Assembly (NCBI GenBank): GCA_049274945.1
Contig: JBASTP010000005.1
Span: forward strand, 3,178-67,177
Length of the DNA: 64,000 nucleotides
Reading direction: 5' to 3'
DNA from: Patescibacteria group bacterium
GTDB taxonomy: Bacteria; Patescibacteriota; UBA1384; GWA2-35-9; JBASTP01
Part shown: positions 8,340 to 56,079 of the stretch, piece by piece
How positions within the stretch are numbered: position 1 is the first letter of the stretch
Layout: every line of letters begins with the position of its first letter
Translations under genes and position numbers: made by a program
Notes under the pieces: model-generated
Told to the model about the DNA's origin: nothing
Databases searched by the model: none
Seen by the model: only the letters and a program-made list of their open reading frames with translations

Positions 8340-9251
8340 TTATCGCTCACTGTTCGTCCAGAACGTTTTCCCATCACTCACCACCTCCACGCGACCATCT
8401 TCATCAGTGCGGTAGATTTGGGCCTGCCATTGCCTCAGCCGTTTTAGCGTGCTAGGTACCGGGTGGCCGAACTGGTTGCCTTTGCCGACTGAGATGATTG
8501 CGAGCTTTGGGGTGGTGGCCTCAAGAAATGCTTCGGTGGTGGAAGTGTTCGAGCCGTGGTGGCCAACTTTGAGCACCTCGACATCAAGTTCGGGTGCATA
8601 GCGTTCCATGATCGCTTGCTCGTGGCGGGCTTCGGCATCGCCGGTAAGGAGGACATCGAACTCGTCGTAACTTGCTTTAGTAACCACCATCGCGTCGTGC
8701 TGCTCTTTCGGTGTTACCCCGTGGAACGATTCAGGAGGATAGTAAACCTTCAACTTCACATCGCCAAATTGCTTCTCGATGCCGGCATGCACCTCTACCA
8801 CCGCTGCGCCTTCCTTTTGCTCTTGCTCGATTGCCGCGCGCCACTTATCGAACGTATTCGTCGTATGAACTGCGCCGCTTACCCAAATTTCTTTAACGCG
8901 GTAGTTCGCCAACACATCGTCCAGCCCGCCAAGGTGATCCGAATGGTTGTGGGTGGCGATCACAAGGTCAATCTCTCGGTCTCTCAGCGGCATCACTTTA
9001 CCAAGTTCGCTCAATACTTGTTCGTTTGGCCCGCCGTCGATTAGCACATCGTGGCCCGACGGCAGCCGCATATAAATCGCATCACCCTGGCCAATGTCGA
9101 GCGCCCAGACATGGAGCAGCTGGTCAGGTGCCTGGACTGCTGAGGTCCAAATAACTATGCCAACGAGCGAAATAATCGCAAGGTAGGCCTGCCAGAGTTT
9201 ACGTTTGATGTGAGGCGGGATGTACATGGCGTTTCCAAAAATGCGAAACAA
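8340..9251 (-). CDS. comEC: ComEC C-terminal part (TM helix + metallo-beta-lactamase domain)
   Basis: LDIGQGDAIYMRL...IATHNHSDHLGGL MBL motifs typical of the ComEC/Rec2 C-terminus. Begins with TTG at 9251 immediately after an in-frame stop and overlaps the upstream ORF by 53 nt in another frame. Confidence 0.75.
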   Translation of the reverse strand: MFRIFGNAMYIPPHIKRKLWQAYLAIISLVGIVIWTSAVQAPDQLLHVWALDIGQGDAIYMRLPSGHDVLIDGGPNEQVLSELGKVMPLRDREIDLVIATHNHSDHLGGLDDVLANYRVKEIWVSGAVHTTNTFDKWRAAIEQEQKEGAAVVEVHAGIEKQFGDVKLKVYYPPESFHGVTPKEQHDAMVVTKASYDEFDVLLTGDAEARHEQAIMERYAPELDVEVLKVGHHGSNTSTTEAFLEATTPKLAIISVGKGNQFGHPVPSTLKRLRQWQAQIYRTDEDGRVEVVSDGKTFWTNSER

Positions 9252-10395
9252 TTAAATAGATAGCTAGATACGCGATCACCGTAAGCCACCACGGCCAGTG
9301 CTCGATGGTTGTTCCGCTGCCCGGCAGCTTCGCCAACCACCTAGTCACTGCCACAATATACCAAGCAATTGGATACAGCGGATAGGCGAGTGGCAGGAGG
9401 GTTGGCCCGGCAAGGCTGCCAAGGATTCCAATAGTAAGTGCGGCAATAGTGAGGATCGGCACAATCGGCAAAATTAAAAAATTGGCGATAGGGGACAGGG
9501 GAGTGAGTTGGCCAAAATGAAAAAGCAGTATCGGCAATACCGCCAGCTGTGCGCCGAGGGTCTCACTAAGAATTGCAACTGTTGCGGATGAACGGCCAAT
9601 GATTGGCAATCGTCCTATCGCCTGCTTTAATAATGGTGCAATATATACCAAACCAAGAAATGCCATAAACGAAAGTTGAAACCCGATATCGTGCAACAAA
9701 ATTGAGGGCTTATGGATCACCATTACCGTAGCAGCAAAAACCAACATGGGCAGCACACTCCCCTGCCGCCCGGTGAGTTGCGCCACAAGAAGGAGCCACG
9801 CCAAAATTGCCGCGCGCACCACCGAAGCCTGGCCGCCCACCAATGCCGCAAACGCAACAATCACAAAACTTCCCACCAAAAATCGGAGCCACGGCGAAAG
9901 TAACTTAAGCCAATCCACAAAAATCTTTAGGACAATCGTCACGTTGTAGCCGCTCACTGCCACAATATGGAGCGTTCCGGTGGCGATAAAGCTTTGTCGA
10001 AGCTCGTTTGAAATCAGTCCCTTACCTCCTAGCACAATCGAGGCAACCAAATTGCCATACGGCACCGGCAGGCTTGTGGCAAAAAATCGCACAAACTCGC
10101 TACGCGCGGTAGCCAGGAGCTCGAATATTTTGAGGTTAGGCAGCTGCCAGGCCGTGCCATCACCTACCAGATTGTGCCAAGCAATACCGGCAAACAACGC
10201 TAAACTCCCAAGGGCTAACCACATCACTACCCGCCGATCGTTGAAATGGAAGGCGAGCGCAACGAGACTAATGCCAATCCACTGGAGCGTAGTATTGCGC
10301 AGCGGCTCGGCTACCGGCACCACCTGCCCCAGCGCAACCCCTACCAGGAATATGAGTTCCATTGCCACAAGGTAGGTTGCACGGTGGACGATCAT
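9199..10395 (-). CDS. comEC: ComEC N-terminal part (polytopic competence/DUF4131 channel domain)
   Basis: 398-aa ORF, highly hydrophobic and multi-TM, with ComEC competence-domain architecture. Confidence 0.75.
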   Translation of the reverse strand: MIVHRATYLVAMELIFLVGVALGQVVPVAEPLRNTTLQWIGISLVALAFHFNDRRVVMWLALGSLALFAGIAWHNLVGDGTAWQLPNLKIFELLATARSEFVRFFATSLPVPYGNLVASIVLGGKGLISNELRQSFIATGTLHIVAVSGYNVTIVLKIFVDWLKLLSPWLRFLVGSFVIVAFAALVGGQASVVRAAILAWLLLVAQLTGRQGSVLPMLVFAATVMVIHKPSILLHDIGFQLSFMAFLGLVYIAPLLKQAIGRLPIIGRSSATVAILSETLGAQLAVLPILLFHFGQLTPLSPIANFLILPIVPILTIAALTIGILGSLAGPTLLPLAYPLYPIAWYIVAVTRWLAKLPGSGTTIEHWPWWLTVIAYLAIYLIVSHFWKRHVHPASHQT

Positions 10396-22840: not shown

Positions 22841-22950
22841 CGGGTCCTGGCTTGGGTACCGCCTCGGGCGTGCGCTCTATAGGAGCGCGTCGGCCGTAAC
22901 AGGCTTCCTATGGCGCTAGCAACCCGCCCTCCCCTCGCACCCTTCGCCAC
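22841..22950 (+). repeat. GC-rich MITE-like intergenic repeat, copy A (internally deleted)
   Basis: The element is about 68% GC. Its 3' 34 nt are the exact reverse complement of the 5' end of copy B (45751-45784). Its 5' ~45 nt are about 90% identical to the reverse complement of the copy B 3' end. Confidence 0.55.
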
Positions 22951-22961
22951 CCGCTTATCTA

Positions 22962-23693
22962 ATGACGATCAAGCCAATCAAAACACACAAGATCGATGGT
23001 AAGCAAACCATCCTCGATGTGTTAGAACACTATCTGCCTTCGCTTACGGAACAATCTATCGTCGCCATTACCTCGAAAATTGTTGCGATCTGCGAAGGAC
23101 GAGTCGTAAAGATGGGCACCATCGACAAAGCAGCGCTGATTCAAAAAGAGGCGGATTACTATATCCGTTCAAAAAGCAGCAATGACTACGCCATTTTAAC
23201 CATCAAAAACAATATGTTTATTCCGAGTGCCGGAATCGATGAATCAAACGGTAATGGCTACTATATCCTGTGGCCTAACAATCCGCAGAAAACCGCGGTA
23301 GCAACGAGGAAGTGGTTGGCAAAGCGTTTTAAGCTCAACAATGTTGGCGTAATTATTACCGACAGCAAAACAACGCCCCTGCGCTGGGGGACCACCGGGG
23401 TGGCGCTGGGATACAGTGGCTTTGAAGGCATTAAAAACTATGTTGGCAAAAAAGATATTTTTGGTCGCGCCCTCGAAGTTACCAAAGCCAATGTGGTTGA
23501 TCCGCTTGCGGCGATGGCGGTGTTAGCGATGGGCGAAGGGGCAGAACAAACCCCGATTGCCATTTTGGAGGATCCTGGATTTGTCAGTTTTAAGAAAAAT
23601 TATCCCTCGAAAAAAGAATTGGCGCTCCTTAATATTGGCCTAAAAGATCCGATGTACCAACCGCTACTGGCCGGAGCTCCGTGGAGATCGTAA
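22962..23693 (+). CDS. CofE-like (F420-0:gamma-glutamyl ligase family) protein
   Basis: IITDSKTTPLRWGTTGVALGYSGF and the surrounding fold resemble CofE/Nitroreductase-associated ligases. 243 aa. Confidence 0.5.
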   Translation: MTIKPIKTHKIDGKQTILDVLEHYLPSLTEQSIVAITSKIVAICEGRVVKMGTIDKAALIQKEADYYIRSKSSNDYAILTIKNNMFIPSAGIDESNGNGYYILWPNNPQKTAVATRKWLAKRFKLNNVGVIITDSKTTPLRWGTTGVALGYSGFEGIKNYVGKKDIFGRALEVTKANVVDPLAAMAVLAMGEGAEQTPIAILEDPGFVSFKKNYPSKKELALLNIGLKDPMYQPLLAGAPWRS

Positions 23694-24221
23694 CTGTTTG
23701 AGCCCCTCGGCCAAAAAGATCAGTTCGTCGAGCATTTTGTTGATACGATCATCAAACTCAGCCAACTTGAGATCCTTAACATTGGAAAAATAGACCGCTT
23801 GGCGAATGGGCACCATTTTGAGTTCGATCGCCACGAGGCGCAATTGTTCCACCACTCTCACTCCCCCGAGCACGCCAGCTGAAACGCCGCAGATCGCCAC
23901 CGGCTTGTAGTTATACTCTTCGTAAAGCTCGTCAAGCAGGATTTTCAAAACACCCGGGTAGCCGTGGTTATATTCGGGCGCCACGATCACAAACGCGTCC
24001 GCTGCTTGGGCAATCTTTTGCCAATCGTGAAACTCTTTGGGCATAGCATCGCTGTCATGGGAAGACAGTTTTGGATCGCAGTTGTAGTCGCGGGGATCAA
24101 CAAGCTGGGTTTTAATTGCTCGCTTTTTAAGTACATCCACCAAGTAACGCGCCGGCGCCTCCGAGCGCCGCCCTTCGCGAGAAGTTCCTAAAATTACGGG
24201 GATATTGAATTGGGAAGCCAT
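23664..24221 (-). CDS. NADPH-dependent FMN reductase family protein
   Basis: VIVAPEYNHGYPGVLK and an N-terminal flavodoxin-like fold. 185 aa. Overlaps the 3' end of the convergent CofE-like gene by 30 nt. Confidence 0.7.
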   Translation of the reverse strand: MASQFNIPVILGTSREGRRSEAPARYLVDVLKKRAIKTQLVDPRDYNCDPKLSSHDSDAMPKEFHDWQKIAQAADAFVIVAPEYNHGYPGVLKILLDELYEEYNYKPVAICGVSAGVLGGVRVVEQLRLVAIELKMVPIRQAVYFSNVKDLKLAEFDDRINKMLDELIFLAEGLKQLRSPRSSGQ

Positions 24222-24386
24222 TATATAACAACCTTTTTCTTTAATAAAGATGGGTGCATACGCTTCACCATTATTCCATTATAATATAAAATAAGTAAGA
24301 CAATTGGGCCTGTAGCCCCGACGCAAGGTCGGGGTCCCGACTTCAAAGAACGTCGGGACTCAGTGTCCCTTTGTTATGAAAATTAT

Positions 24387-24681
24387 GGGCCTGTAGCTCA
24401 GTGGTAGAGCAATTGCCTTCAACTTAGGAGCCTCAAGAAGGAAACGAACTTTTTGAGTGGATATCGCTATATGCTGGAACACCCCGCACCTTTTCATGAA
24501 AAGGTGCGGGACAATCAGCAGGGAAGTGCTTCGACTTCGCTCAGCACCCCTCAGAGACTATACGCGGTACACCTGCGATGGTGAAGAGATAGTCCAGCCT
24601 ACAACCACTTTTAGTGAGGCCACGGTAACGTGGAGTAGGATGTTAAGCAATGTGTCGCGGGTTCGATCCCCGCCAGGCCCT
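24387..24681 (+). tRNA. tRNA-Lys(UUU) interrupted by a group I intron in the anticodon loop (exons 24387-24419 and 24643-24681)
   Basis: Acceptor GGGCCTG/CAGGCCC, D-arm GCTCAGTGGTAGAGC, anticodon stem ATTGC/GCAAT, T-arm GCGGGTTCGATCCCCGC. The 5' anticodon-stem strand is followed by CTT and the 3' strand is preceded by TTAA. The only junction with a 5'-exon U and an intron-terminal G gives loop CTTTTAA (anticodon UUU), with the intron between positions 34 and 35. Confidence 0.7.
24420..24642 (+). ncRNA. Group I self-splicing intron (223 nt, no ORF) within tRNA-Lys
   Basis: CAGAGACTATA at 24551-24561 and GAAGAGATAGTCC at 24583-24595 match, from memory, the group I intron R and S core elements (Tetrahymena GUUCACAGACUAAA and AAGAUAUAGUCGG). 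A long P5/P6-like hairpin CCCGCACCTTTTC-ATG-AAAAGGTGCGGG, a P9-like hairpin with GTAA tetraloop, and a 3'-terminal G are also present. Confidence 0.7.
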
Positions 24682-24693
24682 CATTTCAGAAAG

Positions 24694-24717
24694 ACTCGCC
24701 TCGTGCGAGTTTTTTTT
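24694..24717 (+). terminator. Intrinsic terminator after tRNA-Lys
   Basis: ACTCGC-CTCGT-GCGAGT hairpin followed by TTTTTTTT. Confidence 0.6.
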
Positions 24718-24730
24718 GAAACTGGCAAGT

Positions 24731-24887
24731 GGGGATCGAACAGGAAAAAGGGTCGGAAAAAACACTTTGTTTTTTCCGTTTGCGGAAGCACATGAAACCG
24801 CAGGGTTTCATGCAGCAAATCTGCCGTAGCGATGCAGCTATAGCTTAGGCAGATTTGCTGGTGAGATTCCCCGCCAGGCCCTCATAC
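24731..24887 (+). repeat. tRNA-linked structured element, Lys copy
   Basis: Begins with GGGGATCGAAC, the reverse complement of the tRNA-Lys T-arm. The core CGAACAGGAAAAAGGGTCGGAAAAAACACTTTGTTTTTTCCGTTTGCGGAAGCACATGAAACCGCAGGGTTTCATG is homologous to the element after tRNA-Met (46334-46471). Ends GGTGAGATTCC plus an 18-nt copy of the tRNA-Lys 3' end (CCCCGCCAGGCCCTCAT). Confidence 0.5.
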
Positions 24888-25014
24888 CCTTCGATAAAGC
24901 TTCCGACTCCGCCCTCACTGCGTTGGACAAGTCGTGTGGCGAGCCACCCTTTCTGGGTGCGAACCATACGAACCGGTTGATTTTTTAGATTATTGAGATA
25001 ATACTTAAGATACT

Positions 25015-26091
25015 ATGGTGGGTAACATCTCACATAGAGTATTAGTGCTCGCAACTGTGTTATGGTCAGTACTGCTCGTTACATCGGTCATGGCTCAACC
25101 GATCAAGTTTGACGAACCGGTACAAACGATTCCCGGAAGAGGACTTGGCCGTATCGTATCGCTCTACTACCGAATCGCGGTCCAACTTACGCCCTCACCG
25201 CAAGAAAAGTTCACAATTCTGAATCGGCAGAGCGACTGGACGATTAAGGCATACCACCAGACGATCGATAATGATCCAGAGTTGGCACAAAAAATCCTGC
25301 AGATCTACCTGACCGATATCACCAGAAAACGAGAAAATCTTGCGGAGATGACAGAGGAACTACGAATGCAATCGATCACACGAATTGCGACCGAACAGGA
25401 TGCACTAGCTAAAACTATCACGAGTCGGCAAGACCAAGGGATACTGCAAAGATCAGACGAAACACAGTCCAATAAACCACCATCCCCTACCAGACCAGGA
25501 GCCAAACAACCAACAACCTCTACTGCTAGAGTTGCATCGAACAATCCACCGCCAGAAAACGGCCCAGTACCGAGCCAATCGCCGACAATCACTCAACCCG
25601 ACCCGTCAACGCAACCATCGGAAACCTCATCACCGCAGACGCCGATCTGCCCTTCAGGATCGTTCCCAATCCAACAGTTCAATGGCACCTGGAGTTGCGT
25701 CGAAACATTCAAAACAAGTCCGACCACCCCCACTGCAGAGCCAGTTGACCGACTTTGTGCAACTGAGAAGGTACCATACCCTGCTGACCCTAAAAAGAAA
25801 ATCACCCTTGACACGAGTTCATACACCTGCCGAGAACCAGGCTGGATCACCACTACACAAGGATCAAATCCATTTCCAACCGCCCTCCCATACTGCAGTA
25901 CTCAACGAGATACTGGTCTGCCACCGTCAGGGTACTATTTCCCATATTACAATTCGAGCACCAAAATAGGTTTGCTCTGTGCGTTCGATGTCGGTTCGCT
26001 CACGATCGTGTGTCCCGAGCCAAGGGTTGCAGAAGAACTGAAATCATACTACGGTTCCCGCTACAAAAAAGAGTACTTTTGTTTGTATTAA
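25015..26091 (+). CDS. Secreted hypothetical protein with PST-rich linker and Cys-rich C-terminal domain
   Basis: 358 aa. Signal peptide, helical N-domain, a P/S/T/Q low-complexity region, and a C-terminal region with 10 Cys. AT-richer than its surroundings and bracketed by partial copies of the tRNA-Lys 3' end. Confidence 0.55.
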   Translation: MVGNISHRVLVLATVLWSVLLVTSVMAQPIKFDEPVQTIPGRGLGRIVSLYYRIAVQLTPSPQEKFTILNRQSDWTIKAYHQTIDNDPELAQKILQIYLTDITRKRENLAEMTEELRMQSITRIATEQDALAKTITSRQDQGILQRSDETQSNKPPSPTRPGAKQPTTSTARVASNNPPPENGPVPSQSPTITQPDPSTQPSETSSPQTPICPSGSFPIQQFNGTWSCVETFKTSPTTPTAEPVDRLCATEKVPYPADPKKKITLDTSSYTCREPGWITTTQGSNPFPTALPYCSTQRDTGLPPSGYYFPYYNSSTKIGLLCAFDVGSLTIVCPEPRVAEELKSYYGSRYKKEYFCLY

Positions 26092-26104
26092 AAAATCGAG
26101 TCTT

Positions 26105-26125
26105 ATCCCCGCCGGGCCCTCATAC
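26105..26125 (+). repeat. Third partial copy of the tRNA-Lys 3' end (TATCCCCGCCGGGCCCTCATAC)
   Basis: Matches tRNA-Lys 3'-end positions and the copy at 24866-24887, including the shared trailing CATAC. One substitution (A to G). Confidence 0.4.
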
Positions 26126-26173: not shown

Positions 26174-27028
26174 TCAACGGTTTATAACACTCTCATAGCA
26201 ATCTACCAGGTGTTGGTAGCTGCGAGTAGCAATGACATCGGCACCCGGTGAAAAATCAAACGCCTCAACCGAGACGCACCCTCGATAGCCGATCTCGATC
26301 AGCGCGGCGAAGACTTCGGTAAAGTCAATGCCGTTTTCTGCCATGCCGGGGCCCTGCATATTGAGATCGTTCAGGTGGACGTGGTGGAGTATCGGTGCAT
26401 GCCTGCGAATCAGCCAACCCCGTGAACATTGCTCGCTGCGCATACTATAGCAGTCGAGGATAATCCTCACGGGATGCCCGGCGAGTTCCTCGAGATTATC
26501 GGCAAATGCCGCTGCCTCCTCAGCCGTCGTTAGAAAATTGGTCTGATCGGGACTGAGCGGCTCAATGCACAACATAACACCAAGGTCAGCACCAACGCGG
26601 ACCGCCTGTTTCAAGGTGTGGAGCGAAAGCGTCCGCGCCCGGTCGGGCTCAACATCTGGCTTGATTGAGCGCTGCTGGGGCGATCCAAACACCATAGTAT
26701 CGCCTCCGATATCGTGGCAAAACCGGACAAGCTCCACCAGATATCCACTCGTCCTGTCTCTCACAGCCTTATCAGGATCGGAGATGTGCATCCCCTCTGT
26801 GTCCTTGAGCAGCCAGTGGAGGCCGACTATCTTAAGCTTGCTAACCTCCGCAGCAAGCCTGATCTGATTGCGCCGAGCATCAGAGATTTCAGTGACATCC
26901 TTCGAGATGATAAATGGCGCGATCTCTATGGCATCGTAGCCAAACATTTTGGCTTCAACGAATACATCTTCGATTGGGCGATTGCCCCAGAGTTCGTTGC
27001 AGATAGCAAACCTGAACGATCGTGGCAT
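26174..27028 (-). CDS. Sugar phosphate isomerase/epimerase (xylose-isomerase-like TIM barrel)
   Basis: 284 aa. AP-endonuclease-2/xylose-isomerase-like TIM-barrel motifs (GYDAIEI, HVHLND, LCIEPL). Confidence 0.7.
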   Translation of the reverse strand: MPRSFRFAICNELWGNRPIEDVFVEAKMFGYDAIEIAPFIISKDVTEISDARRNQIRLAAEVSKLKIVGLHWLLKDTEGMHISDPDKAVRDRTSGYLVELVRFCHDIGGDTMVFGSPQQRSIKPDVEPDRARTLSLHTLKQAVRVGADLGVMLCIEPLSPDQTNFLTTAEEAAAFADNLEELAGHPVRIILDCYSMRSEQCSRGWLIRRHAPILHHVHLNDLNMQGPGMAENGIDFTEVFAALIEIGYRGCVSVEAFDFSPGADVIATRSYQHLVDCYESVINR

Positions 27029-45739: not shown

Positions 45740-45900
45740 GTGTCCTGGCGAAGGGTGCGAGGGGAGGGCGGGTTGCTAGCCTGCCTGCCGGTAGGCAGGC
45801 GCCACAGGAAGGGAGCATCCAGCAGCGAACGAAGTGAGCTCTCTAGGAGCGACCGCTCATGTAGAGCGCACGCCCCGAGGCGGTACCCGAGCCAGGACAC
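45740..45900 (+). repeat. GC-rich MITE-like intergenic repeat, copy B (full length, inverted relative to copy A)
   Basis: 161 bp, about 68% GC. Terminal inverted repeat GTGTCCTGGC...GCCAGGACAC and an internal hairpin GCCTGCC-GGTA-GGCAGGC. Confidence 0.55.
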
Positions 45901-46333: not shown

Positions 46334-46471
46334 TGTGGCTGCGGTAGGGAATCTCACCACCTCGACTACGCTGCGCTTCGCTCGGTGCACAAAACCCCTC
46401 GGTTTCGTGTGCTTCCGCAAACGGTGAAAACAAGTGTTTTCCCCGACCCCCTTTCCTGTTCGATCCCTACC
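46334..46471 (-). repeat. tRNA-linked structured element, Met copy
   Basis: On the minus strand it begins GGTAGGGATCGAAC, the reverse complement of the tRNA-Met T-arm. Its core is homologous to the Lys copy with compensatory changes in the CACGAAACC/GGTTTTGTG stem. It ends GGTGAGATTCC plus a copy of the tRNA-Met 3' end (CTACCGCAGCCACA). Confidence 0.5.
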
Positions 46472-46519
46472 GGTGAATCACACAACGAAAATAGCCCGCA
46501 CAAGGCAGGACTGTTTCGT

Positions 46520-46595
46520 TGGTGGCTGCGGTAGGGATCGAACCTACGACCTAACGCTTATGAAGCGCTCGCTCTAACCACTGAGCTACGCAGCC
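46520..46595 (-). tRNA. tRNA-Met(CAU), elongator type (could be tRNA-Ile2 if lysidinylated), CCA encoded
   Basis: Complete 76-nt cloverleaf: GGCTGCG-TA-GCTC-AGTGGTTA-GAGC-G-AGCGC-TTCATAA-GCGTT-AGGTC-GTAGG-TTCGATC-CCTAC-CGCAGCC-A-CCA. Confidence 0.85.
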
Positions 46596-46692
46596 ATCAC
46601 ATACAAAGTAGCACAGGTTTGACGCCTGCGCTACTTTGTATCTGCTGTTATGTTGCGGGGGTGGGATTTGAACCCACGACCTCCAGGTTATG

Positions 46693-47323
46693 CATACCAC
46701 TGCGGCTTTCGCCGTCCCAAAAAAGGTTTGTGGTCTGGACTATACCTTATCCCGATACAACGTTGTCGGGATCCCGCCATCTAGTCTCTACACCTTACCC
46801 GATGTATATCGGGTCTTGGCTCGGTATTACCATATCTACAGAGATAAGGCTTCACCGAATTTGACGGGTATTGCCCCGCTCGTTACCGAGCGGGCGGCCC
46901 ACGATGACAACAAATCCCAACGTTCCCTGTAAGCAGCTGCGATCGGTTTTCGCTGCCTTTTTTCGACTTCTACGAGCGCGATTGTACTGCCATAACGTAC
47001 AAAAATTTCAACTGGAATCACGTAGAAGACAGGGCCTTGATCAATGTAGACGATTGCAAGGTCAAAATCTTCATTGTTGTAACGCTCTCTTCGCATCACC
47101 CGCCGGTTGGTTTTGGTCCTGCGCACATCTACGGCAAAGTAATTATTGGCAGGAACAAACCACGCGTGCTTGATCTGGATACGAATGAGCTTTCCGTTGA
47201 GGTCAACTGCTATGTCATAAGGTAATCGATCACCAACTGGTTTGAGTACCTTAAAGCCTCGACGAAGAAGTTCTGTTACAACAGCTGACTCCGCAATGTC
47301 TGCCTTGAGTTTTGTGTCCATTG
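46693..47323 (-). mobile_element. Group I intron carrying an internal homing-endonuclease-like ORF
   Basis: Core elements on the minus strand are GTAGAGACTAGATGG (R-like) and AAGGTATAGTCCAG (S-like), plus P9-like CGGC-GAAA-GCCG and a terminal G before CATAA. The ORF starts 2 nt after the 5' splice site and occupies the 5' part of the intron. Confidence 0.7.
46836..47321 (-). CDS. Intron-encoded PD-(D/E)XK-type putative homing endonuclease
   Basis: 161 aa, MDTKLKADIAESAVVTELLRRGFKV.... PYDIAVDLNGKLIRIQIK has D...D/E-x-K restriction-endonuclease-fold spacing. The track ORF 46836-47351 begins with an upstream GTG that is actually tRNA exon 1. Confidence 0.55.
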   Translation of the reverse strand: MDTKLKADIAESAVVTELLRRGFKVLKPVGDRLPYDIAVDLNGKLIRIQIKHAWFVPANNYFAVDVRRTKTNRRVMRRERYNNEDFDLAIVYIDQGPVFYVIPVEIFVRYGSTIALVEVEKRQRKPIAAAYRERWDLLSSWAARSVTSGAIPVKFGEALSL

Positions 47324-47457
47324 AGCCTGGCGAGCTACCGGACTGCTCCACCCCGCGATGTTATTAGTGTTCGCTGTCGCACAAAATAATCTGCGACAGT
47401 ATCCGTATTATACACATATTTACATTCTCGTGTAAAGATCGTAAGCTAAAGTTCGCA

Positions 47458-55177: not shown

Positions 55178-55216
55178 CGTATTATATACTATAGTATATA
55201 AGTATTATATAATACT
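55178..55216. other. AT-rich palindromic/direct-repeat site next to the xer gene (candidate dif-like recombination site)
   Basis: GTATTATATA-CTATAGTATATAA-GTATTATATA: a direct repeat flanking an 18-bp perfect palindrome TATATACTATAGTATATA, immediately 3' of the tyrosine recombinase stop. Confidence 0.3.
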
Positions 55217-56079
55217 CAAGTTTTCCGGCGTTTGCCGTGGAAGGCCTTGTGCACCTCTTTGAGCTGAACGTTGGTAACGTGGGTGTAGATTTGGGTGGTA
55301 GTAACTGAGGCATGGCCGAGCAAACTTTGCACTGATCGGAGGTCGCTGCCATTCTGGAGTAAATCTGTTGCATAGCTGTGACGGATCGTGTGGGGATGCA
55401 CCTTTTTCACAATTCCAGCTTTGCGGGCGTGGCTGTCTACCACGCGCTGAATTTGGCGAACGGTGATTGTGAAGACGCGCGGATTATCGTCGCCGCGGGT
55501 TTTAAGATACCGATCAAGCCACTGTTTTGCGGCGTCAGACAGAAACACCACGCGCACCTTGCCGCCCTTGCCGCGCACCGCAAACTCGCCGGAATCGAGA
55601 TTGATTTCGGTTTGCTTCAAGTTTGCCAATTCCGAAACCCGCAACCCGGTTGAAAAAAGTACTTCAAGAATCGCTTTGTCGCGGCTGCCGGTAGGCTTGC
55701 GCAGATCCGGCGCGGCAAGCAGCCGCTCGAGCTCGTTCTCGTCAAGGAAGGTTACTTGCCGTTCGGGCGTATCCGCCAGCTCAATTTTCTCCGCAGCCAG
55801 GGTTTGAATGTCGCGTTTAGTTAAATATTTCAAAAACGAGCGCAACGCAATCAGGTGGTAATTCTGGGTTGAACGAGACATTCTCTCCAGACGATTGAGT
55901 TCAAGGCGCCACTGGCGCACGAGTTCTAAATCAATTTTTTCCGCCCCGTCCACACCGGCTTTTTCGGCGAATTCTAAAAAACGGGAAAGGTAGTGATCAT
56001 AGTTGCGAATCGTCAGGTGCGAGTGCCCCCGCTCAATTTCGCAGTACTCCAAAAATTCACGGATCAATTTAGCGAGCAT
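55216..56079 (-). CDS. Tyrosine recombinase XerC/XerD family
   Basis: 287 aa. The C-terminal HPHTIRHSYATDLLQNGSDLRSVQSLLGHASVTTTQIYTHV carries the catalytic R-H-R-Y residues. N-terminal SAM-like core-binding domain. Confidence 0.85.
   Translation of the reverse strand: MLAKLIREFLEYCEIERGHSHLTIRNYDHYLSRFLEFAEKAGVDGAEKIDLELVRQWRLELNRLERMSRSTQNYHLIALRSFLKYLTKRDIQTLAAEKIELADTPERQVTFLDENELERLLAAPDLRKPTGSRDKAILEVLFSTGLRVSELANLKQTEINLDSGEFAVRGKGGKVRVVFLSDAAKQWLDRYLKTRGDDNPRVFTITVRQIQRVVDSHARKAGIVKKVHPHTIRHSYATDLLQNGSDLRSVQSLLGHASVTTTQIYTHVTNVQLKEVHKAFHGKRRKT

Follow-up and report, generated by a model that had tools for sequence, protein, structure and literature searches.

A gene-less unit behind two tRNA genes of a Patescibacteria genome: a possible miniature mobile element that targets tRNAs and has no relatives in the collections searched

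The 64-kb stretch of DNA analysed here (the window), from an ultra-small bacterium of the Patescibacteria (CPR), carries two homologous non-coding units, one 3′ of a tRNA-Lys(UUU) gene (copy A) and one 3′ of a tRNA-Met gene (copy B). The tRNA-Lys gene is on the plus strand at positions 24387–24683. It has two exons (24387–24419 and 24643–24683) that are separated at 34/35 by a group I intron of 223 nt (24420–24642), which matches Rfam RF00028 with 40.6 bits and E = 4e-9, under the gathering score. Because the intron splits the gene, ARAGORN did not call the unspliced tRNA-Lys in the window. When the exons were joined in silico the program returned tRNA-Lys(UUU) (ttt), and an intron-less orthologue at a related locus, L050, is called tRNA-Lys(TTT). 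The segment from tRNA position 59 to the 3′ end, TCCCCGCCAGGCCCTCAT (24667–24684, plus strand), is the working tRNA 3′ end and at the same time the inner, attL-like member of a pair of direct repeats. It is followed on the same strand by a trailer, an intrinsic terminator and a spacer (24685–24728). The terminator, with its stem at 24693–24709 and its U-run at 24710–24717, gives a terminator-like match and resembles that of copy B. Next come an inverted arm, GTGGGGATCGAAC (24729–24741, plus strand), that is complementary to tRNA positions 53–65, and a conserved core (24742–24867, plus strand). The core consists of the junction AGGAAAAAGGGT, hairpin 1 (24754–24778), TTTGCGGAAGCA, hairpin 2 (24791–24812) and a 3′ part (24813–24867) with a long, variable hairpin 3 (24813–24860) and the conserved end motif GTGAGAT (24861–24867). 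The outer, attR-like direct repeat (24868–24885, plus strand) repeats the last 18 nt of the tRNA-Lys end and is followed by TAC.

Copy B lies on the minus strand. Its target gene is tRNA-Met(CAU) (46520–46595), of which the final 16 nt (46537–46522) form the inner repeat. The trailer, terminator and spacer occupy 46474–46521 with a stem-loop at 46509–46495, and the spacer TTTCGTTG repeats the trailer CAACGAAA in inverted orientation. In the inverted arm CCGGTAGGGATCGAAC (46458–46473), 15 bases are perfectly complementary to tRNA-Met positions 53–67. The conserved core (46351–46457) has junctions and hairpins like those of copy A, except that the third hairpin is shorter, and ends with the motif GGTGAGAT. 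The outer direct repeat TCCCTACCGCAGCCAC (46335–46350) is 11 nt from the stop codon of a convergent DivIC gene. The other genes neighbouring the element encode an orphan secreted protein and an FMN reductase. Upstream of the tRNAs there is also a separate 43-nt hairpin pair that follows GTAG and is present in one copy in the window.

The homology of the two elements that the original prediction described was confirmed in two ways. The core 24-mer CCGTTTGCGGAAGCACAYGAAACC occurs exactly twice, at 24776–24799 on the plus strand and at 46401–46424 on the minus strand, where none is expected by chance, so that the predicted shared core is indeed present in both copies. A two-sequence HMM searched with nhmmer matched only these two copies within the window (E = 6e-67 and 1.5e-61). 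Seen directly in the DNA, the unit fills the whole interval between two directly repeated copies of the end of its tRNA, with a repeat of 18 bp and a period of 201 bp at tRNA-Lys and a repeat of 16 bp and a period of 187 bp at tRNA-Met. Homology between the copies covers the entire segment from the tRNA end to the outer repeat, and none was found past the outer repeat, where the comparison of the flanks scored below the shuffled mean. For the terminator part, the observed score between copies was reached by 26 of 5000 shuffles. The size of about 140–160 bp proposed earlier was too small, since the trailer and terminator belong to the homologous unit. Each unit comprises a trailer and an intrinsic terminator of its own, the 3′ part of the tRNA in inverted form, three conserved hairpins and GGTGAGAT abutting the outer repeat, with no ORF inside. 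The tRNA end, the terminator and the inverted copy make up a palindrome of about 90 nt, in which the tRNA 3′ end is the left arm and the antisense arm is the right arm. The element had been thought to start with the antisense arm; the arm is present, but the unit starts at the tRNA end.

Both arms match their own tRNA. The Lys arm forms 11 perfect pairs and one G.U pair with tRNA positions 53–65, and the Met arm CGGTAGGGATCGAAC (46472–46458, minus strand) is a perfect 15-nt complement. Both copies and both T-loops contain ten of the arm bases, GGGATCGAAC, so that the tRNA-specific part is only 1–3 nt for Lys and 5 nt for Met. The description of the arm as an antisense copy of the neighbour's T-arm holds for the complementarity, but its specificity for one tRNA is limited to those few bases. 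The arm of copy A has two possible partners, namely the tRNA end, with which it forms the long palindrome, and the outer repeat, with which it forms a closing stem. After GGTGAGAT come 18 nt at the Lys site (24868–24885 = 24667–24684) and 16 nt at the Met site (46350–46335 = 46537–46522). At both sites these match the tRNA exactly, beginning at position 59 in the T-loop and running to its 3′ end, in agreement with the predicted terminal copy of 14–18 nt. Each insertion is bounded by repeats and reconstitutes the tRNA, as an att-flanked integrative element does, and the inner copy completes a normal tRNA. Fragments of tRNA genes beside tRNA genes are a known footprint of integrating elements (PMC9897764).

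The original prediction suggested looking for empty sites in related strains, and one was found. In a related MAG (GCA_964342885.1), a locus (L050) with flanks about 95% identical to the window has an intron-less tRNA-Lys to which TACACTTCG is directly joined, as it is to the outer repeat in the window. The TAC after the outer repeat of copy A is the flank that directly follows the tRNA at this empty site. Relative to the window, the segment missing from L050 is exactly the 201-bp period, terminator included, and because the trailer and terminator of copy A are absent from the empty site they are part of the insertion. L050 has the form expected for the empty site of an att-flanked element, with the caveat that the tRNA allele (8 of 73 nt differ) and the intron differ as well. 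Because of this, the polymorphism may be a replacement of a whole block made up of the tRNA interior, the intron and the element, and not a move by the element on its own. The 99 nt upstream of the Lys locus are identical between L050 and the window.

The Met copy is kept in the same MAG (L052) without a single difference in 141 positions, its core being 100% identical. The adjoining DNA differs by 3–4%, the DivIC gene beside the copy differs at 12 of 378 positions, and changes are seen in the terminator and in the spacer that separates the two tRNAs. Such conservation would be expected equally of a host function and of a mobile element under constraint. No element was found at the tRNA-Met of the next relatives (L047/L048). 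The element and the intron are found together at both sites of the window and at L052; both are absent from the Lys site of L050 and from the Met site of L047/L048.

This last result bears on the idea that the element is a passive relic or passenger, either a remnant of larger integrated elements or tRNA-operon DNA spread by homologous recombination or by co-conversion during intron homing, for which the outer repeat would provide the downstream homology. The presence of the element coincides with that of a group I intron in the same tRNA operon at five of five loci. At the Lys site the tRNA allele, intron and element differ together next to the identical upstream DNA, and a ComEC competence channel is encoded in the window. 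However, only the Lys locus counts as an independent event for the intron correlation, and the Met copy is perfectly conserved while the inter-tRNA spacer and terminator changed. Two separate decays would not leave the same ordered architecture at two tRNAs, and the same core with matching arms behind both would be left unexplained. We consider passive origin quite improbable.

The Lys site appears to have a longer history. At a distance of 1.2 kb beyond it there is a third copy of the tRNA-Lys end (26106–26125), which is decaying, with one mismatch in the window and more decay in L050. Between it and the outer repeat is an orphan ORF, and the gene after this region has its best homologues in Planctomycetes, at about 50% identity. 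Judged from sequence, the older repeat, the orphan ORF and the foreign-like gene present the pattern of repeated integration at one tRNA. The empty site, the limits of homology and this older repeat now give better support to the mobile-element alternative that was among the original proposals. We give an even chance to the reading that the element is a gene-less insertion module of about 190–200 bp in tRNA 3′ ends, that is, a miniature, non-autonomous, att-flanked integrative element.

The same repeats could also be produced by transposition with a long target duplication. Staggered cuts 16–18 bp apart, at the boundary of T-loop and T-stem and at the tRNA 3′ end, would act in a casposon-like manner on any tRNA with the T-loop GGTTCGATC, and the arm would be matched later by palindrome correction. 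Such cuts would duplicate the tRNA end automatically and leave the tRNA intact, and no prior match between element and target would be needed. The duplications are similar, not equal, in length (18 and 16 bp) and have the same start (tRNA position 59), both target tRNAs share GGTTCGATCCC, and casposons, with their 14–15 bp duplication at tRNA 3′ ends, are a precedent. By contrast, ends that are defined by the duplication and lack terminal inverted repeats do not favour this explanation, nor does the older repeat at 26106–26125, which bounds a different, unrelated insert. Neither a transposase nor Cas1 was found in the window. This route seems very unlikely to us.

Structure was compared between the copies on both strands. 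On the tRNA-sense strand the folds have energies of −70.9 and −50.5 kcal/mol (z = −5.6 and −2.1), which is 6–8 kcal/mol better than on the opposite strand, and only the sense strand has G.U pairs. In both copies the closing stem contains an identical bulged T and G.A/G.A internal loop. The hairpin CATGAAACC/GGTTTCATG of the Lys copy corresponds to CACGAAACC/GGTTTTGTG in the Met copy, with U-A changed to C-G and, in addition, G-C to G.U. There is one double change in each of four helices. The 4 double changes are accompanied by 2 single changes and by 2 pairs that are broken, a pattern that was reached in 32 of 500 shuffle trials. The compensatory changes are as first described, but the conclusion that RNA structure is under selection was too strong. 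Because there are just two distinct sequences, these changes are only suggestive of selection on structure. Template-switch correction of quasi-palindromes is a mechanical route by which paired changes may likewise appear in palindromic DNA.

Another reading is that the element is a functional RNA tied to its tRNA, made by terminator read-through or from its own start, with the functional tRNA 3′ external transcribed spacer as its nearest analogue. Its 5′ arm would be antisense to the T-arm/3′ part of the tRNA and its 3′ end a decoy of that part, giving a three-segment switch that acts on tRNA folding, processing or 3′-fragment binding. The stable multi-hairpin fold of the sense strand with its strand-specific G.U pairs, the double change in every one of the four helices, the 0 of 141 differences compared with 12 of 378 in DivIC, and the ability of the antisense arm to pair with the tRNA end or the outer copy are consistent with this. 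However, the covariation is statistically weak, as the shuffles show, and the element lies 3′ of an intrinsic terminator that is strong at the Lys copy (8 U), with no promoter-like site preceding it. It is also missing from a close relative at the same tRNA-Lys and from the next relatives at tRNA-Met, and was not found in any other genome searched. Moreover, an exact 16–18-nt copy of a tRNA end is impossible by point mutation, so that copying at the DNA level would be needed anyway. For these reasons the co-transcribed RNA that was the other original proposal is not favoured, and we consider a functional RNA unlikely.

Searches for further copies beyond the two paralogues, which had been proposed as a check, yielded none in the collections used, although the Met copy does recur in L052. 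The core pattern gave no copy among GTDB species genomes, where a single match inside a coding region of Pseudohongiella is due to chance. It gave 42 loci in JGI metagenomes, none with the other motifs, and two patterns gave 0 matches in IMG/VR. No match was obtained with blastn of each copy against phage and plasmid collections, or with the concatenated six-frame translation of both copies, which was used as a protein query for spurious ORFs. Rfam, including its small ribozymes, tRNA-like elements, Y-RNA-like RNAs and CRISPR repeats, gave no covariance-model match at gathering score, and matches with E up to 10 were noise plus the terminator in both copies. This agrees with the first impression that the element does not belong to a described family.

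Several known types of element were considered and rejected. A MITE would have conserved terminal inverted repeats, and the ends here (TTTCAG... / CAACGA... versus ...GGTGAGAT) are not of this kind; the duplications are 16–18 bp of specific tRNA sequence. A REP/RAYT palindromic element, with GTAG and a short palindrome in many intergenic copies, does not describe the element. A tmRNA or tRNA-like 3′ domain was negative in both ARAGORN and Rfam. A hammerhead-like core is suggested by CUGGUGAG...CGAAC, which resembles CUGAUGAG...CGAAAC. Against it, neither of the invariant bases A6 and A15.1 is preserved, the deviation is larger in the Met copy, and Rfam gave no match. An internal guide of group I type, by which trans-splicing would replace the end of the tRNA, would need a larger core and a U.G at the would-be splice site, which is absent. 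A retron ncRNA lacks its reverse transcriptase here, and for a homing crRNA of a type V-K CAST the transposon genes are missing and the lineage does not fit. The likeness to a single-strand origin of a rolling-circle replicon is merely a 6-mer. Finally, the two inverted copies do not bound a large island, as the intervening 21.5 kb is housekeeping DNA that is syntenic with relatives.

No recombinase is encoded in or adjoining the element. The sole one in the 64 kb is a housekeeping-type Xer 9 kb away (55216–56079), an Xer/XerA-type recombinase that scores 231 bits against the XerA model (cut-off 220). Under our preferred reading of a miniature att-flanked element, the inner copy would be the working tRNA end (attL-like), the outer copy a leftover fragment (attR-like), and GGTGAGAT would imitate the T-loop side of the target. 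The circularised module would approximate a complete phage-type attP, with an arm of about 140 bp on one side of the shared block and about 45–60 bp on the other. A recombinase encoded elsewhere would exchange strands within the 16–18-bp block common to the element and the tRNA gene, which would leave the tRNA undamaged. The hairpins and the palindromic arm would represent recombination-site architecture, either as protein-binding palindromes or as a folded strand, and the complementarity of the arm to the tRNA may be kept by selection or by template-switch correction in the palindrome. After insertion, the module could also be carried along passively when its tRNA allele spreads by homologous recombination or by homing of the group I intron. 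In this scheme we infer the recombinase, an intermediate (circular or other) and the way in which one family came to match two tRNAs. Against an att-type mechanism, the shared blocks of the two tRNAs differ at about 9 positions, and a single sequence-specific integrase would not be expected to act on both. The scheme also does not explain how a gene-less element gained a matching block and arm for a second tRNA.

A more novel reading is an element whose specificity resides in its own nucleic acid. Such a gene-less, retargetable element would have sense and antisense copies of the T-arm/3′ end of its target tRNA. Folded as single strands of DNA or RNA, they would mimic the target site, and a host enzyme such as the Xer-type recombinase, or a guide-dependent protein, would insert the element; a family at the tRNA 5′ end would be its mirror image. 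We consider this unlikely. In one form of a programmable, nucleic-acid-guided mini-element, the inverted arm would pair with the element's own copy of the tRNA end. The resulting single-strand stem, with its conserved bulged T and tandem G.A mismatch, would mimic the duplex of the tRNA gene for an Xer/integron-type recombinase, in the manner of integron attC sites and the attP of phage CTX; in another, a guide like the omega-RNA of TnpB would use a 16–18-nt 3′ segment together with a protein encoded elsewhere. The arms track the target tRNA in both orientations, the bulged T and G.A/G.A loop are identical in both closing stems, one strand is favoured in folding, and the Xer/XerA-type recombinase and ComEC are encoded in the window. 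The sizes also fit, with a scaffold of about 120–140 nt before a 16–18-nt 3′ segment that in the target is preceded by TTCGA/TCGAT. However, there is no adjoining effector gene, the junctions are not at the integron G|TT and the core-site matches are imperfect. The arms are mutually complementary, unlike the guide halves of bridge RNAs or TIGR, part of the "guide" is sequestered in a stem, and an element of 200 nt lacks the means to produce a circle of single-stranded DNA. A guided mini-element of this type is thus rather improbable. If retargeting of this sort were true, both families would make the tRNA genes of reduced genomes hot spots of programmable insertion.

The host lineage has genomes of about 1 Mb with few recognised mobile elements. 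If it is a mobile element, hardly any smaller self-contained integrative module would be known. It would be roughly as large as an attachment site alone and would bring a spare tRNA end and a terminator with it. It raises the question of how a gene-less element matches two different tRNAs in both orientations. The answer could reveal a T-loop-directed, block-tolerant recombinase or a mechanism based on a folded strand or a guide. The modules mark recombination hot spots that break synteny between strains 99.7% identical in adjacent DNA. Together, 3′ modules, 5′-side units and introns cause tRNA genes and "fragments" of Patescibacteria to be mis-annotated.

As a comparison with known systems, the element resembles tRNA 3′ external transcribed spacers such as 3′ETS-leuZ of E. 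coli in being non-coding, conserved in structure and directly 3′ of the last tRNA of an operon. Unlike 3′ETS-leuZ, it has its conserved core 3′ of the terminator hairpin and U-run, which speaks against a trailer of this type, carries tRNA 3′-end copies in both orientations and is missing from a close relative. Casposons are Cas1-dependent, make duplications of 14–15 bp and are often found at tRNA 3′ ends. The element shares the tRNA 3′-end preference and the long target duplication; unlike casposons it has no terminal inverted repeats and no Cas1 or polymerase gene, and is only about 200 bp long.

The scaffold of about 120–140 nt followed by 16–18 nt equal to the flanking target is like that of TnpB omega-RNA, IS110 bridge RNA or TIGR tigRNA, as is a second segment that matches the opposite strand. 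Unlike these systems, the element has no adjoining protein gene and no array arrangement. For TnpB/IscB, the guide-like 3′ segment is present and the nuclease gene absent. The guide halves of bridge RNAs and TIGR bind adjacent, non-overlapping target segments, whereas the two target-matching segments of the element overlap and pair together. An IS110 bridge RNA or tigRNA was rejected on this ground, the arms being complementary to each other over 9–11 bp, and on the lack of an adjoining recombinase or Nop-domain gene.

Integron attC sites and the attP of phage CTX, used by IntI and XerCD, are similar to the element in size (57–141 nt for attC). They are also similar in their imperfect hairpin with a conserved extrahelical base, unpaired central patch and variable terminal stem-loop, in strand-specific folding and in a host that encodes an Xer-type recombinase. 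ATCGAAC and GTGAGAT are each one base off the attC core consensus (RYYYAAC / GTTRRRY). Unlike attC, the target junction falls after GAT and not at G|TT, and the window has no integron integrase, attI or cassette array, so that an integron attC or gene cassette was rejected. The stem of the element also carries target-specific sequence, and a 16–18-bp target duplication such as it shows is no feature of attC or CTX integration.

Integrative elements of tRNA genes and their non-autonomous derivatives, such as att-flanked islands and cis-mobilizable elements (CIMEs), are kilobases long in the known examples. Unlike them, the element is about 200 bp and gene-less, with no integrase in or next to it, its left part is palindromic with the tRNA end, and one family occupies two tRNAs with matching blocks. 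It is like them in its insertion at the 3′ part of a tRNA gene, in the element-borne copy that restores the tRNA, in the outer tRNA fragment that forms a direct repeat and in a presence that differs between close relatives. The older repeat and foreign genes further downstream are like tandem accretion at one tRNA.

Two different tRNA genes, tRNA-Lys(UUU) on the plus strand and tRNA-Met on the minus strand, are each followed by a copy of the same gene-less element (copies A and B, respectively). The 24-mer CCGTTTGCGGAAGCACAYGAAACC occurs exactly twice in the window, at 24776 (+) and 46424 (–), where chance would give none, and a profile built from the two copies matches just these two in the window (E 6e-67 and 1.5e-61). 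The homology claimed in the original prediction is therefore real, but its limits of 24731-24887 and 46334-46471 were too narrow, since the unit includes a terminator and spans everything between two direct repeats of the tRNA 3' end. At copy A, the last 18 nt of tRNA-Lys, TCCCCGCCAGGCCCTCAT, recur exactly 201 bp downstream; at copy B, the last 16 nt of tRNA-Met, TCCCTACCGCAGCCAC, recur exactly 187 bp downstream. The repeated block begins at T-loop position 59 and extends slightly beyond the discriminator. The two copies are homologous across the entire segment between the repeats, and a search for similarity past the outer repeat gave none. From the tRNA outward, the unit consists of a short trailer with an intrinsic terminator (A/B similarity equalled in 26 of 5000 shuffles), a spacer, an inverted copy of the tRNA 3' part, the junction AGGAAARRGGGT, a hairpin CGGRRAAAAC.../...GTTTTYNCCG, TTTGCGGAAGCA, a hairpin CAYGAAACC/GGTTTYRTG, a third hairpin of variable length, and GGTGAGAT, which lies directly against the outer repeat.

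Comparison of the element with Rfam gave nothing at gathering score and, up to E 10, only a terminator, in agreement with the claim that this is not a described family. No further copies were found in 185,579 species genomes, JGI metagenome contigs, IMG/VR, or phage and plasmid records, nor with a six-frame protein query, so the family is either narrow or diverging too fast for exact 19-20-mer seeds. Three known classes were considered and rejected. The terminal inverted repeats of a MITE are absent, the junction rule and context differ from those of an integron attC site, and the adjoining nuclease or recombinase gene needed by an omega-RNA or bridge RNA is lacking.

The window comes from the chromosome of a Patescibacteria (CPR) bacterium. 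Its FtsH and a sugar-phosphate isomerase match proteins of a Patescibacteria MAG in NCBI at 100% identity, and the next relatives of the FtsH, at 87% and 80% identity, include Candidatus Berkelbacteria. Housekeeping genes surround both copies: F420 ligase, FMN reductase, and TypA near copy A, and TrpRS/TyrRS, DivIC, FtsH, and an fn3 surface protein near copy B. ARAGORN makes no call on the unspliced tRNA gene upstream of copy A because a 223-nt group I intron splits it. This intron (24420-24642) is ORF-less, lies at position 34/35, and reaches 40.6 bits in Rfam (E 4e-9), below the gathering score. The joined exons give tRNA-Lys(UUU), and an intron-less orthologue in the related MAG GCA_964342885.1 is called as tRNA-Lys. 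The target of copy B, tRNA-Met (46520-46595, minus strand), is preceded by a second CAU tRNA that is itself split by a group I intron (about 46650-47400, minus strand) with a PD-(D/E)XK endonuclease ORF at 46836-47351. Group I introns have already been described in tRNA genes of Patescibacteria (PMC13011429). Both element-bearing tRNA operons contain one, and element and intron are present together or absent together at all five loci seen. At two loci of Berkelbacteria-level relatives (L047 and L048), the two CAU tRNAs are flanked by DivIC and FtsH and have neither intron nor element. The orientation of the pair in the window (46334-47457) is opposite to that in L047 (9789-10000) and L048, so the pair was inverted or replaced as a cassette.

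Flanking sequence in the related MAG is about 95-97% identical to that of the window. At its tRNA-Lys locus, the intron-less tRNA is followed directly by TACACTTCGATAAAGC..., the sequence found after the outer repeat in the window, and the stretch absent is exactly the 201-bp period, terminator included. The locus is an empty site, of the type that the original prediction proposed looking for, with the caveat that the tRNA allele and the intron differ too. Eight of 73 nt in the tRNA differ (anticodon stem and T-arm) and the 99 nt upstream are identical, so tRNA interior, intron, and element may have been replaced as a single block. The difference could thus reflect a block swap, via recombination or intron-homing co-conversion, and not insertion of the element only. 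That the element is a passive relic or a passenger of intron homing seems quite improbable to us, although its presence coincides with that of the intron at every locus seen. At the tRNA-Met locus of the same MAG, the element is present with 0/141 nt differences; DivIC has 12/378, the 10-nt spacer 3, and the terminator region 2/46, and the inter-tRNA spacer is heavily changed. At about 4% divergence the chance of finding no difference over 141 nt is about 0.004, and the element is under constraint equal to that of the tRNA.

The tRNA-Lys locus has a longer history. The tRNA-Lys end occurs a third time at 26106-26125, as TCCCCGCCgGGCCCTCATAC. This repeat has one mismatch, shares its TAC flank with the second, and is present in a more decayed state in the related MAG. 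The 1.2-kb segment between the second and third repeats (24886-26125) contains only a secreted 358-aa orphan ORF (25015-26091) with no Pfam or NCBIfam match, and looks like an older insertion at this tRNA. Beside the third repeat is a sugar-phosphate isomerase/epimerase gene (26174-27028, minus strand), whose closest homologues, at ~50% identity, are from Planctomycetes (Pirellulales, Thermogutta); it was probably gained horizontally, downstream of the tRNA-Lys hot spot. Fragments of a tRNA end repeated with foreign DNA between them are what elements integrating one after another at a single tRNA are known to leave behind (PMC9897764). Separately, a Logan locus (L044, SRR28002555; compared with window 23597-24365) from a strain 99.7% identical over FMN reductase diverges exactly 21 nt upstream of tRNA-Lys and continues with tRNA-Thr(CGU) and different genes, which marks a strain-level rearrangement breakpoint at the tRNA.

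Other repeats were seen in passing. A mirror-image family of units occupies the tRNA 5' end (window 24305-24386; related MAG, L050 2992-3133 at tRNA-Lys and L052 7709-7854 at tRNA-Met; L044 747-807). In each, the initial 11 nt of the tRNA (Lys, GGGCCTGTAGC; Met, GGCTGCGTAGC) are followed by a near-identical, REP-like 43-nt hairpin pair (CCCGACGCAAGGTCGGGG TCCCGACTTC...GTCGGGAC) inserted right after GTAGC, then by TCAGTRG, the next tRNA bases, a ~20-nt spacer, and the real tRNA. Copy number differs between close strains (1 versus 2 before tRNA-Lys, 0 versus 2 before tRNA-Met), and one Lys-type unit precedes tRNA-Thr. A second intergenic family, at 22843-22950 (+) and 45746-45900 (–), shares a 35-nt block, GCTAGCAACCCGCCCTCCCCTCGCACCCTTCGCCA, at 100% identity and two more blocks at 91-96%; it had no Rfam match to E 1, and its 45.8 kb copy is strongly diverged in the related MAG.

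The element had been described as carrying an antisense T-arm. The complementary arm is present, but it is better seen as the right half of a long imperfect palindrome, in which the tRNA 3' end, trailer, terminator, spacer, and inverted arm form a single ~90-nt hairpin (–45.4 and –48.6 kcal/mol in the two copies; z –5.3 and –8.2). The palindrome arms match over 15 nt of tRNA and 8 nt of trailer in copy B and over 13 nt, with one G.U, in copy A. Ten arm bases, GGGATCGAAC, are common to both copies and both T-loops, so what is specific to the tRNA amounts to little at Lys (1-3 nt) and is evident at Met (5 nt). Folded without the tRNA end, the element has four helices, closed by a stem between the inverted arm and the outer repeat that contains a conserved bulged T along with a tandem G.A patch; with the tRNA end included, the arm pairs preferentially with it.

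Structure statistics were calculated from two distinct sequences, a third being identical to copy B. Pairing holds in 97% of alignment cells, and the four main helices carry one double compensatory change apiece; the other pair changes are two one-sided (to G.U) and two broken. Shifting the pairing partners by 1-3 columns gave 0-1 double changes, and shuffling reached the observed values in 32 of 500 trials. The predicted compensatory changes thus exist, but as a sign of selected structure they are suggestive, not decisive. Template-switch correction of DNA palindromes can also yield paired changes, which are therefore no proof that RNA has been under selection. Folding of the sense strand is 6-8 kcal/mol more favourable than that of the antisense strand, and it is on the former that the wobble pairs read as G.U; this points weakly to a tRNA-sense strand that folds, either as RNA or as DNA. 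A functional RNA acting on the tRNA as a switch or decoy is unlikely in our judgment; the element starts past a terminator, and no promoter-like site was found ahead of it. Similarly doubtful is a programmable element, folded-strand or guide-based, possibly acting via a Xer-type recombinase. The two target-matching arms of the element overlap and pair together, whereas those of bridge and TIGR guides do not. The sole recombinase within the window is a 287-aa Xer-type tyrosine recombinase (55216-56079, minus strand), above the XerA model cut-off and under those for XerC and XerD. The window also encodes a ComEC competence channel (9199-10395, minus strand). Both genes bear only on the speculative folded-strand and transformation scenarios. 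A nucleic-acid-programmed element, doubtful as it is, would be of high interest.

Together, two paralogues, one orthologue, and one empty site form a thin evidence base, from which the best-supported reading, which we hold at about an even chance, is a miniature, non-autonomous integrative module. Its order would be inner repeat (attL-like), element, and outer repeat (attR-like), and it is roughly as long as a full phage-type attachment site. Strand exchange would occur inside the common 16-18-bp block through a putative enzyme encoded elsewhere; the module would supply a substitute tRNA end and terminator and could then spread together with the tRNA allele. A casposon-like insertion targeting the T-loop, with the block as its long duplication, has little probability in our estimate. 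The integrative module accounts for the repeats, for the homology limits, for the empty site, and for the Lys site's history. It leaves three points unexplained: which enzyme acts, why conservation is perfect, and by what route an element with no gene acquired a match to a second tRNA in both orientations. The variant seen here is undescribed: it has no genes, measures about 200 bp, forms a palindrome with its target, and occurs at two tRNAs; insertion at a tRNA 3' end with a duplicated tRNA end is of a kind already well known.
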